Assembly (NCBI RefSeq): GCF_002854065.1
Contig: NZ_CP024152.1
Reading direction: 5' to 3' (one strand)
From: Escherichia coli
GTDB taxonomy: Bacteria > Pseudomonadota > Gammaproteobacteria > Enterobacterales > Enterobacteriaceae
Length of the DNA stretch: 64,000 bases
A program made the position numbers. Positions 3,001 through 9,000 of this stretch are shown one piece after another; the stretch's first letter is position 1, and every line of letters begins with the position of its first letter.

Positions 3001-6000
3001 TTTTTATTTCCATATCATCACTTTGACTCAATCTCTCTAATTCACGAATGATGTTATCCGCCTGGCATCGACCTTCACCTAATGCATAGATCGCAGCAAG
3101 CGTAATGTCTTTTGATTTACTCTTCATCATTTCAAACAAGAAAGTATTAGCTATCGCAGGAGGCATGCTCATAATCAATCCTCTTCATGAAATAAACAAT
3201 GGCACTCACTTACAAACAGGAGTCCACTATCGCAAGCGACTCAACTTAGTAATATCTCTCAATTTGAATGAAAAAACCAGATGGCATGTGACAGGGAACC
3301 GTCCGCATGATGTCCGTGACCATTTAACCCCATAAACTGATAAAAAATGAATACCGGTATCTCAATGCGAAGAAATAATCTCCGTAGAATCCCCCATGAG
3401 AAAAATATCATATGGGAGAAAATCGCAATTATCACAGCCAGCGCATTCATTATTTTCGCTGTCTTCTGGCATTAATTATTTTCAACACAAAAAGGAAAAA
3501 ACAATGAATCTGGTAGACGCCTTTGTCAAAAAAGTAATATCCGGTCCATATGAAGAATATGGAAAATGGTGGATAGATGTTGAATACATTTCATGGGGTG
3601 TTCCCGGGAAAACAAGACTGATGTTTGAGTCAAAGGAGCAGGCACTGGAAGTTAAAGAAGGGTACAAATTTTTAACGTGAGATCTCTTTTTGTTAAAGGG
3701 CAGGAAGCGGTAACTCCCTGCCCTTAGTTACGTTTCCAGGCTTATCAGTCGACAAGTTCCCGGATCAGTTCCAGAACAGCAATCAGCGCGTTTGCAACGG
3801 CAACTACTGCCCTGAGAACGATGATTAACAGATTAATCATCCGCTTCTCCATCACTGGAGGAAATCACCGTTGCTTACTCTTACATTGCCTGTCACAACG
3901 GCACTTTCAGTGTTAGTTGAAAAGAGACTTCCTCCTGCCAGAGCACTGAACACAGCACCACCTGTTTGTTCAGCCAGGACTTAAAATCTTGCATCCATAG
4001 TCCCGATGGATATCACGGCAGAAGTGTCGCCAGACAGAGCTAACCTGCGGATTATAAGGATGGTTGCTATCAAATGAACAGCTCGCTATTATAAGAACGT
4101 TAGTTGAAAAGAGATTTCCTCCGGTCAGGGCCACCCACTCTGTAACGGAACAGTAAAAAAACCGACCTCACCAGTCGGTTTTTTTACATCTGTTGTTTCT
4201 CAAAATCCGCCCAACATGCCCGTCACACCGGGGAAACTCATGCTCTGAATCAGAACCAACCATCTCAACTTTGCCGTCTCCTGAAAAAACTGGCACATTC
4301 AGTTCGATAACTACCCATAAATACAGAGAGAAAATCCGATGTCAGAAAAGTGGAGTAAAGAATTCGACTCTTGCTTTCAGGTGGGGAGCATAGAAGAAAT
4401 TGCAGATGCTCTCGAGAAACGCAGCGGAAGCGAGGAAAATGCGTTAGCCATGCTGGCAATGACAGCCTTCACACTCATGACCCGACGTGGTATCTGCGAA
4501 ATGCAGAACGTGGCCCCCGATGGCAAAGGCATTCGGCTGGAGCTAATCGGCTTCAGGGAAAATGAAACAATACCGGATACGCTTCATTGAAGAAGAAAGG
4601 GCGCAATGAGGTCAGCCTTCGCAACAAAGCGGCGGCAGAAAACCTGCCGCCGTGTTGCCCGTTAACGTTTAACTTCGTAGGCTAACGTTGCCACAAGCAC
4701 TGTGTTTCCCTGCTGGAGCCGGAGTCCGCAAAGCGAATCCCTCACCATCCAGACAAAACACAGAATCGTCACACAGATGACGATTAACATCATTAAAAAC
4801 GTTCGCTGTGGCATCATAGCCCCTCCATTGCCTTACGGCGGTTATCGGGCTACTATAATGTTGTCTAGGCATTACAGTAGAGCCCTTGGTTGATTGATAA
4901 AAAAATCTCCAGGGGCTTTCTGCTGTATATGGTTTAGTTAACAAAGAGAGCCAGTGTTCCACTGAGCAAAACCAGTAGCTATTCATGCTTACAATTATCT
5001 TCTCCATATCTGAAATAACTCAAACAGCCCAATAGAAACATATTGTTACATCTAAGATCTTGAAAAGACCTCTTTGAGAAATCAATATGAGATCACGGTA
5101 TGTTGATAGGATAATATATATGAAGAAACTATTGATTCGATTAATACCTGATGCAATATATGAGGCTCTGGAAAAGACAGCTCTGCATTCTGAACGCTCC
5201 CTGGAAGCACAGGCCAGATATATCCTTAGTTGCTCCGTAGATAATGAAAAACAATTAACTGGTGGTGAACGCTATCAAAGAGAAATAACCGCGCGTCTTA
5301 ATCAAGCGTTATCAGAAGCTAATGAGGTCATAACAGCCATTAATCTTGTTCCCGCAAGAATTGCAGAACAATTAGGCCATCATGACGCCATAGAATCCGA
5401 AAATTGGTTCACCGGAAATGCTGTTCCTAGCTTTACAGAGCTTGACGAATTAAGCGATATCTTTGGATGCTCTCCAGATTGGTTAAAGTTTGGCGAAAAT
5501 GTACCTTATCCAAAGAGTTCTAAAGGAAGGATAAACTGGAATCGTGGCGGAGAAAAAGATATCGATGCACTTTTAGAGCCTGACAACAAAGGTCGTAAAG
5601 TCTCATCTATTCATATTTTCAGGGTAAATGAATCTGGCAATATACTAATACTGAGAGAATTTGAAAACAGCATAACTACAGATTTTTTCTCAACAAACCT
5701 TTACTTATCAGACAAAGAAAAAATAGGACAGGGCGGATTCCACGACCTGGTCGATTTCCTTGTAATTTTACAATCCCTTTATTTAAAATATATAAATAGC
5801 AATCTGTTAGTGAAAAGCTATAACATTAGCCAATATGTACTGGATTCCTGTTATAAGAGCGGAGAAAAGCACCCCATAACTATATGTAGTGCAGGTGAGA
5901 CAAGTACCTGGTGGGAAGACATATGGCATGAAGACATGATAGCTCAATCGAGGAATAATGAGTCCTACTTCTGGGATGGTGACAAACCTCTTATTGATAG

Positions 6001-9000
6001 CCTTCATAAAGAACTTCAAAAAAATAACAGATTAAAGCCAAACAGTGAGTTAGATATGCCACTAATTGGTTAAACACCAATTAAAGATTATCTAGCTAAA
6101 ACAACATCGTACACGCATACTGCAAAGCCCTTGGTGAGTTAATAGAAGAATTACTAAGGGCTTATAAAAAATATATACCCCCACATTGGTGACACATTAA
6201 AATATTTTTTGTTGATGTGTTACCAGCCTGACCCAAAAACAATTTTTAATCTTTCCGTTCGATTTAAATTCCAGAAATGGAGACTTTGTCATGTCTTACA
6301 ATCGACAGCCTGTCGCAGAAGATCCTATGCAGATATGGGGCGCTGTTGGTGTCCTTCTTATCCTGCTGCTGTTCGTCATATGGTTATTCTTGCCGGAAGT
6401 GGTTTACACCAGCTGCCTGATTCTTCATACCTTATGGGGACTGGTCGACTGGGGACCATTTCATAACTATGCAGCACCACGATACAACCTGCTTGCCATG
6501 ACCGGTAACAACGCCGCCAACATAAGCTATAGCCAGTGGGTTAACGTCATGGAACAGACCATAGGTATTCTGTGGATGTACCTCTTACCTGTGACACTCT
6601 GGTGTTTGTGGGAATGGTATCAACATCCGGGACAAAGCCGTTTCACCCGCAGACCAGTAGATATTACCCGACTGCCACACATCTTTGCTTCGTTATCCCC
6701 TGCTATCGCCCCTGTACTGGCAGATGGTGATCCGAAAAAACTCTTTCATGGTGGTAAACGACCTGAACGGCGGGTTGCTCTCACCCCGGAAGCATTTGTC
6801 GAACAGCATACTCTCATCACCAATATGCAGCTCGATGTTGCAGCTGCAAGACGATGTTTCATGGCCCAGTTGGGTAAACCTTTAACGTCCTGGAAAGACA
6901 TGGCACCACATGAAAAAGCGCTCTTTGCCATATTTGGCCTTCAGTATTTCCTGGATGATCGGAAGGCAGCATTAAAGCTCATGGATACACTGAACCTCTC
7001 ATGCAGAATTAAAAGCAAACGGGACAGCGGGAAATTCTGTACCCCTGTTTATTCACTGGCCAAATCAGCTTTCCAGAGAGTGATTAAAAGCAACGGAGCA
7101 CAGCAATGGCTGAAACAACATCGCTACGTCCGCAGTGGGCTGGTCTGGCTGTATGCACATGACCTGCGGCTTACGCCACCCAACTGGATTTGGCTGAAAG
7201 GCGTGGACAGAACGCTGTTTTATGCATTACACCGCGCCAATACCACGAAAGGATTTATTGAAGGCGCTGGCGTGGTGGCCGTTGCACGTGCAGAGGCCGA
7301 AGCCATGCGTTTTGGTCTTCCCTGCCCTGAACCCTGTGTTGATGAAGCGGTGGAAGGCTTACGGCGGGATATGCTCAGTCTCGGTCTTATCTGGGATGAA
7401 CCACAACCAGATCGCGACCGGAAACGCCGCATCCTGACCAACTGGTCCCTCACCGACGACATCCTGCCCCGCACACCTGCTACAGACAACGAATTCTGAT
7501 TATCCGGAGAACTGAAAATGACAATCGAGTACTTTGCAACACGCATTGCAAAACATATTTCCGTGCAGGCAATCTGGCCGGATGGCAGGACAGAAATTAT
7601 TGCTGTCCTTCCACGGGATGCCCTGTCAGGGCTGGTAACACGAAATAATCAACTGATTCATATAGCCTTTGACGCCATGGGCACCCGTAACAGAGAAACC
7701 GTCCTGATTGATAAACAGGAGCATAACGCTGACCAGATACTTACAGCTATTGATTCCTGCCTGCGCCTTGAATATCTGATGGAACGCCGCTTCAGCAGAA
7801 CACCTTTGTTCCGTGGCATAATCGCCAGCGTTGTGCTGTTCGTAATGGCAACGATTGGCTTCTCTCTGTTCCGCTATGTTGATCGTGTATTCTGGGATGA
7901 TACAACGCCTGAAGCAGTACAGACAGCAGGTGAGCCACGACTGCTACCCCCTCACCTGAATCACACTGTGCCATTAAATGAAGGCATTCAACTCCCGGTT
8001 CCCCCGAAAAAAGACGTCCAGGTCCCGGAGAAAACAATCACAAGCAAAAATCCGGAAGCCGCAGCTGCGCGACATAATCTGGCTACTGTTCTGAAGCGGA
8101 ACGCCGATCGGGGCATGTTTACCATCAACCTGTCATCCGGTCATGAACGAACCCTGTTCGCATTTCTCGATCCTGCCTGTCCTAACTGCAGACTTCTGGA
8201 GCCGGCCTTAAAACGCCTGGCCAGCGACTTCAATGTCGTTATCTACCCGGTTTCAGTTATTGGTGGAGAGGAATCCACCGACCGTGTGGCACCACTGCTG
8301 TGTGAAAAAGATGCTCAGAAACGTGCTGCCGGCTGGCACCGACTGTATTCCGCAGATAACGGAATGATGACGCCATCAGAAGAAACAACGCCTGCAGATG
8401 AAACATGCCTGAAAGCAGCCAGAGCTGCGATTGATGTTAACAATGTCGCCTTCCGTAAGTTCGGATTTGCCGGTACCCCATGGGTGCTGTCCGACACCGG
8501 CTGGCATCTGCCTACAGGAATTCTGCAGGAAACTGGCACGCTTAATTTATTCCTGAAAACCACCGACAGCGAGTCTGGCCATGAGTGAACATCGCGTTAA
8601 CCCCGAGCTTTTACACCGTACAGCCTGGGGAAATCCTGTCTGGAATGCACTCCAGAGTCTCAATATCTATGGCTTTTGCCTGGTGGCAAGTCTTGTGGCC
8701 AGTTTTATCTGGCCACTTGCATTACCGGCATGTCTGTTGTTCACACTGATAACAATGCTGGTATTTAGTCTGCAGCGATGGCGCTGCCCTCTTCGTATGC
8801 CCATGACGCTGGAATGTGCTGACCCGTCACAGGACAGAATGATTAAAAGAAGTCTTTTCAGCTTCTGGCCAACCCTGTTCCAGTATGAGGTCATTCTGGA
8901 ATCACCGGCCAGCGGCATATTCTATGTTGGTTATCAACGCGTCAGGGATATTGGCAGGGAGTTATGGCTGAGTATGGACGATCTGACCCGCCATATAATG

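Follow-up and report, generated by a model that had tools for sequence, protein, structure and literature searches.

A cassette at the finQ site of IncI plasmids encodes a putative DNA-binding protein of a large, uncharacterized family

In the 64-kb stretch of Escherichia coli plasmid DNA analyzed here (the window), an AT-rich cassette between the toxin gene pnd and trbA carries a stand-alone gene whose product joins a ribbon-helix-helix (RHH), a helix-turn-helix (HTH), and a C-terminal domain (CTD) that has neither a Pfam model nor a solved structure. The RHH-HTH-CTD family is large, mainly plasmid borne, mostly found on conjugative plasmids, and uncharacterized. In the reading that we favor, at a probability of about 45%, the product is a stand-alone DNA-binding protein, probably a repressor of its own promoter, that would act as an autoregulated, signal-responsive factor in mobile-element conflicts. 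IncI plasmids rank among the major carriers of extended-spectrum β-lactamase (ESBL) and AmpC resistance genes, and their plasmid multilocus sequence typing (pMLST) uses the trbA-pndC region as one of five loci. The cassette reveals a third, unstudied allelic state of that region. Its product belongs to a protein family that is very common on plasmids, and it is a concrete candidate for interference between plasmids or between plasmid and phage.

A third state of the pnd-trbA site

The AT-rich block coincides exactly with an indel relative to R64-type IncI plasmids (Table 1). Positions 4930 to 6233 have a GC content of 37.0% and the coding sequence 38.1%; the window as a whole has 49.8%, and the 10 kb that follow have 50.6%. 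An earlier note on this DNA had proposed a gene between pnd and trbA, AT rich together with about 1.3 kb around it and separately acquired as cargo. The gene and its product are real, both neighbors are as claimed, and the GC scan delimits the AT-rich tract to the indel itself. Comparison with other IncI plasmids upheld the cargo status, since the gene is not universal: it is present in approximately 103 of the 1419 IncI-type plasmids of PLSDB. finQ, an unrelated gene, occupies the same spot in approximately 514 of the 1419, and the same plasmid backbones are found with finQ, with the RHH-HTH-CTD gene, or empty. The site is a known finQ insertion hot spot and a variable pMLST locus (PMC2887853, PMC8004404).

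Table 1. Features at and around the cassette (positions in the window)
Feature	Position	Strand	Description
pnd (Hok/Gef gene)	4662-4817	-	flanks cassette
Leader of pnd (hok-family) mRNA	4812..5029	-	5' hairpin and native promoter cut away at junction 4929/4930
AT-rich cassette	4930..6233	.	1304 bp, 37% GC; replaces 120 bp of R64-type pnd-trbA spacer (blastn and junction reading)
Candidate operator, 5' region of the gene	5039..5089	.	imperfect inverted repeat CATATTGTTACATCTAAGA / TCTTTGAGAAATCAATATG enclosing AAAAGACCTCTTTGAG
RHH-HTH-CTD protein CDS	5120..6073	+	317 aa, stop codon included
RHH, FitA-like/Arc type	5129..5230	+	residues ~4-37
XRE-type HTH, mainly from structure	5267..5503	+	residues ~50-128; 3' end at invariant W121-L-K-x-G125
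C-terminal alpha/beta domain	5501..6070	+	residues 128-317, 190 aa
Two stem-loops/palindromes between stop codon and trbA	6125-6135/6153-6163; 6187-6200/6212-6225	+	span 6125..6225
trbA	6291 onward		flanks cassette on the other side; same orientation as the RHH-HTH-CTD gene

A cassette with 97.6% identity is also present in pRHB15-C22_2. The ends of the window cassette have neither terminal inverted repeats nor a target duplication, and their pattern looks like recombination within hok-family leader repeats. The pnd toxin mRNA loses the 5' end of its leader to the cassette; with an 84-nt insertion, the locus reaches 74.9 bits against the Rfam sok model, compared with 134.2 bits for the intact R64-type locus.

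Counted from an upstream ATG at 5087, the plus-strand open reading frame spans 5087 to 6073 and encodes 328 aa, which is the form annotated by PGAP as "hypothetical protein" (WP_001257838.1); a literature search with this accession found nothing. The ATG at 5120 is the likelier start because its equivalent is the start in all homologues (MKKLL/MQRLN) and because an AGGA lies 9 nt 5' of it. Comparison with a 98.4% identical allele gave a pN/pS of 0.16, and purifying selection acts on what is a real, selected gene. Downstream of it, the folding z-score for 6074 to 6290 is -3.5, neither stem-loop is followed by a U-tract, and the second palindrome (6187 to 6225) occurs only in this cassette. We found no convincing sigma-70 promoter beside the upstream inverted repeat and no convincing canonical terminator for the gene.

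Sharing the intergenic site of finQ, its orientation relative to trbABC, and a similar AT-rich cassette size, and alternating with finQ and the empty state on the same backbones, the gene could have a FinQ-like role in fertility inhibition or plasmid interference where finQ is absent, with its product binding promoters or operators of the transfer genes of a coresident plasmid. TraY-type transfer regulators have an RHH fold, and weak TraY matches were obtained with 4 of 72 members. The protein could even be FinU, which is not known to have been identified. FinU was defined in plasmid JR66a, on which we found no literature. [quoted passage not shown] We nevertheless consider this role improbable. 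Position is the sole specific evidence for it, the protein has no similarity to FinQ (BLASTP E = 8 versus FinQ of R621a or R820a), and the family extends far beyond plasmids that meet F-like elements. A role as an establishment factor, which the earlier note had raised, is unlikely because the trb side of oriT is the last to reach the recipient during IncI1 transfer.

Domains and family of the protein

The claimed domain composition, an RHH-like N terminus, an XRE-type HTH, and an unrecognized C-terminal half, was borne out, with the RHH assigned by Pfam and the HTH mainly by structure. FitA-like_RHH (PF22513) matches residues 4 to 37 (E = 3e-6) and was found in 51 of 72 relatives; Arc (PF03869) was found in 18 of the 72. 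The XRE-type assignment rests mainly on a five-helix, lambda repressor-like fold rather than on sequence score: HTH_3 matches only in part (E = 0.06, model positions 28 to 55 only), the DicA match (E = 0.004) lies far under its curated cutoff, and an HTH reaches E ≤ 0.001 in only 9 of 72 relatives. With scores that stay below the Pfam thresholds and a recognition helix that shows poor conservation among family members, the HTH could be structural rather than DNA binding.

The CTD has the order b1-b2-b3-a1-b4-a2-b5-a and the conserved motifs GxGG, HP, WWEDIW, and YFW. It has no sequence match in Pfam, NCBIfam, PADLOC, PHROGs, or the PDB, and a second, word-indexed search with the C-terminal alignment returned four matches only. 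Profile and PDB searches with the C-terminal half yielded no known fold with an annotated function, so this part of the earlier description stands. The domain may possess an activity that is invisible from sequence or fold. Given that it has no Pfam model and no solved structure, it is a target for structural and domain annotation work.

Two distinct DNA-binding modules joined to a further domain had been called an unusual architecture. It is instead the norm in its family, which comprises at least 568 clusters when sequences are grouped at 50% identity (E ≤ 1e-3); 126 of 192 retrieved sequences have it, with HTH-CTD in 34 and RHH-HTH in 18. At 90% identity, the cluster of the window protein has 810 members on more than 1000 contigs. 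Within PLSDB, 646 plasmids carry a family member; 543 are conjugative, and approximately 400 are from Klebsiella. A DNA-pattern scan for the WWEDIWD motif traced the wider spread, and members also occur in Acetobacteraceae, Burkholderiales, and Acinetobacter and on chromosomes; the INPHARED collection held no phage-encoded relative. Members are annotated as hypothetical, with the database names "antitoxin FitA" or "plasmid stability protein" for some.

Members are stand-alone genes. Across more than 30 homologous loci, no partner gene is conserved between clades, and neighbors are shared only among syntenic Acetobacteraceae loci. These observations bear on whether the protein is an orphan or fused antitoxin-like protein, with RHH and HTH as its DNA-binding domains and a CTD that neutralizes a toxin from another locus or is a latent toxin in its own right. 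A FitA-like RHH and an XRE HTH are both typical of antitoxins, the database names point the same way, and the gene adjoins the type I toxin gene pnd, whose leader the cassette disrupts. Some loci also have a small overlapping downstream open reading frame (69 aa [DUF7706] in Klebsiella, 71 aa in Acetobacter, 230 aa in Yersinia). However, these are unrelated across clades and absent from most loci, and, besides the divergent pnd, neither a PIN nor any other toxin gene adjoins the window gene, with no open reading frame of at least 30 aa on the plus strand at 6073 to 6209. We regard an antitoxin-like function as very doubtful.

Upstream repeat and proposed mechanism

In every clade examined, a palindrome or repeat of its own lies just 5' of the start codon. 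Those of other clades are strong (for example, TGCAATCA-N6-TGATTGCA, GGTACCTAGTAGGTACC, and ATGATATCAT); the inverted repeat of the window gene is only 74% complementary. Its AAAAGAC/TTTGAG element recurs upstream of Klebsiella, Serratia, Yersinia, and metagenomic homologues; AAAAGAC...TTTGAG is present in 6 of 7 loci of the window's clade against a background of about 0.4 per kb, although such motifs are shared partly through common ancestry. The element occurs once in the 64-kb window, and no further operator copies were found there.

In the autoregulatory reading that we favor, the N-terminal RHH would dimerize and, with the XRE-type HTH, bind a palindromic operator in the promoter region of its own gene. 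The conserved core, made up of the HTH and the 190-aa CTD, would sense a signal or promote oligomerization and thereby set the activity of the N-terminal output domain. For the window protein, that output would be DNA binding, either as transcriptional control or as occlusion of a target. As there is no second operator copy in the window, the target likely belongs to a competing mobile element or to the host. The cassette itself is an alternative cargo to finQ in the same hot spot, maintained by selection.

The suggestion that the C-terminal half might be a sensor gains support because HTH and CTD stay constant while rare relatives have a TIR domain, a possibly TIR-like domain, or transmembrane helices in place of the N-terminal RHH. 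One relative, from JGI 3300047643, matches Pfam TIR_2 (E = 1e-22) and PADLOC ThsB/PDC-S66, another has a weak CAP12/Pycsar TIR-like match, and the helices of the transmembrane version were read from sequence. These exchanges, with possible Mrr fusions, fit a defense effector logic better than a plain regulator. The protein might then be a single-gene antiphage or antiplasmid defense, in which the HTH-CTD senses invader DNA or protein and the RHH blocks expression or replication of the invader, the effector in relatives being a TIR domain, a membrane-disrupting segment, or a nuclease. Consistent with this, a similar C-terminal fold is found in proteins named Mrr endonuclease and Schlafen-AlbA2, the neighbors of homologues include type III CBASS, type I restriction-modification genes, an RES toxin, a KAP NTPase, and DndB, and the gene occupies a hot spot of variable content in a conjugative plasmid. 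Against it, the Mrr and Schlafen matches are moderate and structural only (TM of ~0.55), the neighborhoods are heterogeneous with many ordinary plasmid maintenance genes, and only a small minority of sequences (4 or 5 of approximately 190) carry effector-type fusions. Furthermore, PADLOC-DB 2.0 contains no family matching the window protein at E ≤ 1 or the HTH-CTD part of the TIR relative, and to our knowledge, RHH is not a killing effector. On balance, we consider a dedicated defense function rather unlikely.

A bolder version would make HTH-CTD a previously unrecognized conflict sensor module with interchangeable outputs (RHH, TIR, membrane, and possibly Mrr nuclease) and the IncI RHH protein an alternative finQ-locus occupant that inhibits rival plasmids or phages in trans and may be FinU. 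This is a long shot, yet if its domain-swap logic were true, the known bacterial conflict systems would gain a new sensor module.

Comparison with known systems

The CTD is unlike SAVED, CARF, and STING, and it does not combine the b1-b2-b3-a-b4-a-b5 topology with the conserved acidic catalytic residues of RNase H-like fold nucleases (DEDD and related), a class that we rejected. IbfA (HEC-04) and Abi of R64 or ColIb were also rejected, as different proteins at a different locus: IbfA of R64 is a 518-aa ATPase-TOPRIM protein and that of ColIb is a short, unrelated protein, both encoded elsewhere on the plasmid (PMC12111858, PMC8004404).

FinQ of the IncI plasmids R62, R820a, and R621a is encoded at the same pnd-trbA site in the same backbone (PMC2887853, PMC8004404). 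Like the RHH-HTH-CTD gene, finQ is a single gene in the same orientation and is present in a subset of IncI plasmids, and its cassette is close in size and composition (1250 bp and 38.5% GC versus 1304 bp and 37% GC). However, the finQ cassette has a 171-bp flanking duplication and leaves the pnd leader intact, whereas the cassette described here replaces 120 bp and truncates the leader. FinQ has 363 aa and is recognized by NCBI's FinQ naming, while the window protein instead has RHH and HTH domains; identity with FinQ was rejected, position being all that the two have in common.

The N-terminal 40 residues resemble RHH proteins of the FitA/Arc/MetJ type in matching the FitA-like model, and, as in RHH autorepressors, the promoter region of the gene itself contains inverted repeats. 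FitA is short and paired with the PIN toxin FitB, whereas the window protein has no partner and carries about 270 further residues (HTH and the new domain); a FitAB-type type II toxin-antitoxin pair was rejected, there being no toxin gene besides the divergent pnd. XRE/lambda cI-type repressors (cI and DicA) combine an HTH with a C-terminal oligomerization or sensor domain. The window protein differs from them in that its CTD is neither an S24 peptidase nor a known sensor, an extra RHH precedes the HTH, and no phage in the INPHARED collection encodes a relative. Finally, sensor-effector defense proteins with swappable N-terminal TIR, transmembrane, or nuclease modules (such as ThsB-like TIR proteins and Pycsar or CBASS effectors) differ in that the window gene has no conserved signal-generating partner and its product's output is putative DNA binding, not a toxic effector. 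What rare members of the family share with them is the exchange of the N-terminal domain in front of the same HTH-CTD.

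An AT-rich cassette between pnd and trbA

The window gene lies in a single long open reading frame (ORF) of 328 amino acids and, read from ATG 5120, encodes a 317-amino-acid protein with an N-terminal ribbon-helix-helix (RHH), a central XRE-type helix-turn-helix (HTH), and a C-terminal domain (CTD; residues 128 to 317). We took 5120 as the start because all homologues start at the equivalent position and AGGA lies 9 nt 5' of this ATG. The PGAP record of the 328-amino-acid form (WP_001257838.1) reads "hypothetical protein," the only name under which the gene is known, and our literature search found no paper mentioning it. 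The earlier note's description of the ORF, its domains, its low GC content, and its pnd and trbA flanks was correct throughout. A GC scan agreed with the AT-rich surroundings it had claimed, with 34 to 43% GC over ~4850 to 6350 versus ~50% on the trb side; the cassette (4930 to 6233) has 37.0% GC and the coding sequence 38.1%, both below the window-wide 49.8%.

The window is 100% identical to the E. coli IncI-type conjugative plasmid pI_050613. Only 103 of the 1,419 PLSDB plasmids with the same 56 bp directly upstream of trbA carry the gene region, and alignment with the R64-type plasmid pSD107 placed the cassette junctions at 4929/4930 and ~6233/6234, with 1,304 bp in the window standing in place of 120 bp of pSD107. 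These results support the proposal that the gene is separately acquired cargo.

Features in the window and at the loci compared
Feature	Sequence	Position	Strand	Detail
Long ORF	Window	5087-6073	+	328 aa
Window gene	Window	5120-6073	+	317 aa
Cassette	Window	4930-6233		1,304 bp
Hok/Gef (pnd) gene	Window	4662-4817	-	Left flank of window gene
Truncated pnd (hok-family) mRNA leader	Window	4812-5029	-	Rfam sok model
Leader segment duplicated in pRHB15-C22_2	Window	4846-4929		84 bp
Promoter-like site	Window	5023-4994	-	In cassette
trbA	Window	from 6291		Right flank of window gene
Inverted repeat	Window	5039-5057 / 5071-5089		Around AAAAGACCTCTTTGAG
AgrB antisense RNA match	Window	4100-4187	+	Rfam
ORF at DqlB position	Window	~3745-3855	-	36 aa
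Two stem-loops/palindromes	Window	6125-6225
pRHB15-C22_2 locus	L047 (CP057774.1)	1484-2310		Second cassette arrangement
Small ORF over family gene's stop codon	L003 (Klebsiella)	7052-7261		69 aa, DUF7706
Small ORF over family gene's stop codon	L025 (Acetobacter)	9875-10090		71 aa
Medium ORF over family gene's stop codon	L015 (Yersinia)	4276-4968		230 aa
Chromosomal homologue	L008 (Serratia sp. 14-2641)	6001-6963
TIR-HTH-CTD relative	L018 (JGI 3300047643)	1992-3254
FinQ, extended ORF	L017 (R621a, NC_015965)	45396-46487		363 aa
FinQ, PGAP	L017 (R621a, NC_015965)	45396-46175		260 aa
Upstream palindrome or repeat	Acetobacteraceae			TGCAATCA-N6-TGATTGCA plus third half-site
Upstream palindrome or repeat	Acinetobacter			GGTACCTAGTAGGTACC
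Upstream palindrome or repeat	Burkholderiales			ATGATATCAT
Upstream palindrome or repeat	Ignatzschineria			ACTATCATTTT...AAAATGATAGT

The left junction of the cassette falls within the pnd mRNA leader; the Rfam sok model spans the stretch between the leader's 5' end and the start codon of pndC. This model scored 134.2 bits in an R64-type locus versus 74.9 bits in the window, where the match has an 84-nt insertion in place of the ascending (5') arm of the first hairpin. The low score and this insertion indicate that the native pnd promoter and ~40 nt of the leader's 5' end are missing; the minus-strand promoter-like site in the cassette could be a substitute. In plasmid pRHB15-C22_2, pnd is intact and the same cassette has a second arrangement, in which pnd is followed by ~130 bp, an 84-bp leader duplicate, and then directly the cassette, with a further 75-bp copy of that leader segment ~1.2 kb upstream. 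The intact pnd and the duplicate suggest that the window form is the product of a deletion between leader repeats, and it is probably through such repeats that cassettes are gained, lost, and exchanged at this hot spot. Just upstream of pnd, an AgrB match (55.3 bits; gathering score, 40) and, nearby on the opposite strand, an ORF at the place annotated as DqlB, a DinQ-like type I toxin, in the record of the identical plasmid resemble a further type I toxin-antitoxin locus.

The pRHB15-C22_2 allele at this site is 98.4% identical to the window gene, differing by 8 synonymous and 5 nonsynonymous codons (pN/pS, 0.16), and the protein's 90% identity cluster has 810 members on >1,000 contigs of E. 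coli, Salmonella, and Shigella. This conservation and the pN/pS ratio exclude a spurious ORF, and the gene is functional and under purifying selection.

The family and its C-terminal domain

A word-indexed search returned only 21 close relatives, from Enterobacterales. An exhaustive profile search found 568 clusters (50% identity) at an E value of ≤1e-3 and 209 at ≤1e-10, mostly of ~300 amino acids and matching end to end. Module HMMs built on the family alignment assigned RHH-HTH-CTD to 126, HTH-CTD to 34, and RHH-HTH to 18 of the 192 retrieved sequences, some of the shorter ones being fragments. By tblastn, relatives occur on 646 PLSDB plasmids (543 conjugative; 401 from Klebsiella), all annotated as hypothetical; the phage genomes of the INPHARED collection contained no family member. 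When one genome per species was scanned with a DNA pattern for the WWEDIWD motif, 25 loci matched, of which 23 proved to be genuine members, from Acetobacteraceae, Burkholderiales, Acinetobacter, Ignatzschineria, and others.

The N-terminal and central domains belong to known types, with Pfam FitA-like_RHH matching residues 4 to 37 (E = 3e-6). The CTD, in which the earlier note had recognized no motif, is covered by no Pfam family in any of 72 members, and a profile search of PDB sequences gave no match. Modeled alone from a 57-sequence alignment (pLDDT, 90.4; pTM, 0.87), it is predicted to be alpha/beta with the order b1-b2-b3-a1-b4-a2-b5-a. This order is RNase H-like, but D267 is the sole acidic residue that is near-invariant. 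Foldseek against AFDB50 returned unnamed family members and, more weakly (E = 4e-5 to 1e-2; TM, ~0.55), a similar domain in proteins named Mrr endonuclease and Schlafen-AlbA2. The CTD and the whole family are undescribed.

A few relatives retain HTH-CTD with a different N terminus. In P0168 it is a true TIR domain (Pfam TIR_2, E = 1e-22; PADLOC ThsB and PDC-S66 TIR models), and in P0063 and two genes of Oxalobacteraceae it is a domain of ~180 amino acids that matches CAP12/Pycsar-TIR weakly (E = 0.006). The hydrophobic N termini of P0088 (on an IncP-like plasmid fragment), P0112, and P0165 are apparently transmembrane, as read from sequence. In this small sample, the swaps and the Mrr and Schlafen structural matches resemble what is seen in conflict systems, a "constant sensor, variable output" logic; on this reading, the output in most members would be DNA binding by the RHH. 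The window protein could itself be a genuine defense (abortive-infection-like) protein, which we consider possible but doubtful; PADLOC gave no model for it. Separately, the TIR-HTH-CTD relative on a JGI contig lies in an apparent operon with unannotated genes of 491 and 455 amino acids and a DUF5677 gene, which may be a multigene defense-like system around the HTH-CTD module.

Neighborhoods, operator-like DNA, and proposed function

No partner gene conserved across >30 family loci was found. Among the neighbors are, in Serratia, a type III CBASS and a VgrG island; elsewhere, type I restriction-modification genes, a KAP NTPase, and a RES toxin; and UmuDC (three times), ParA/StbA partition genes, resolvases, and Tn7-like genes. 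Clustering of neighboring ORFs joined only syntenic Acetobacteraceae loci. The ORFs overlapping family stop codons may be clade-specific accessory partners; the Klebsiella ORF is unrelated to the Acetobacter one, and the ORF list gave no overlapping small downstream ORF for the window gene. With no conserved partner and downstream ORFs unrelated or absent, the window gene is therefore stand-alone. The window protein might be an orphan or fused antitoxin, a reading that we judge unlikely. The chromosomal Serratia homologue, 56% identical, has on one side a VgrG/PAAR type VI effector island and on the other a type III CBASS (SMODS, HORMA, a putative TRIP13-like AAA ATPase, and a DUF6602 gene as putative effector) accompanied by an HTH and M78-peptidase regulator pair.

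In every clade examined, the ~100 bp 5' of the start codon contain a strong palindrome or repeat. The window equivalent is weaker, a 19-nt inverted repeat with 74% complementarity, and a consensus scan found no convincing sigma-70 promoter adjoining it. Of 7 Enterobacterales-clade loci, 6 have an AAAAGA[C/G] element in the 200 bp upstream (background, ~0.4 per kb); the 64-kb window contains it a single time. Palindromes that are specific to a clade and lie at a gene's own promoter are the classic signature of autoregulated repressors. Mainly because of these palindromes, we favor, at a probability of roughly 45%, an autoregulated DNA-binding protein that responds to a signal, with HTH-CTD as its sensing or oligomerizing core. 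The protein would repress its own promoter via the upstream palindrome, a candidate operator, and would probably act in trans on a rival element or host genes. An establishment role is unlikely because the trb side of oriT is the last part to enter the recipient when IncI1 plasmids transfer. The two stem-loops or palindromes between the stop codon and trbA both lack a U-tract; the second (TGGTGACACATTAA / TTGATGTGTTACCA), found only in the cassette, ends ~65 bp ahead of the trbA start and may influence read-through into trbABC or serve as a protein-binding site.

Comparison with finQ

The pnd-trbA spacer is the length-variable trbA-pndC pMLST locus, in which some IncI1 plasmids carry an inserted fertility inhibition gene, finQ (PMC2887853, PMC8004404). 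At ≥95% identity, finQ occurs in ~514 PLSDB plasmids. Since the window gene, finQ, and empty versions were all found there, the site has at least three states: empty, finQ, and window gene. For FinQ of R621a, an upstream ATG extends the PGAP ORF to a length near the quoted 361 amino acids (PMC8004404). The window protein is not FinQ, to which it has no similarity (BLASTP E = 8).

The shared site raises the reading that the window protein is a fertility inhibition factor analogous to FinQ, possibly FinU, a fertility inhibition determinant of IncI1 plasmids; we consider this unlikely. The more interesting reading, of low probability, would make HTH-CTD a new conflict-system sensor module and the window gene a FinU candidate. 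As cargo, the window gene is comparable to finQ of R621a, which has the same site and orientation within a 1,250-bp cassette of 38.5% GC with a 171-bp duplication at its flanks.
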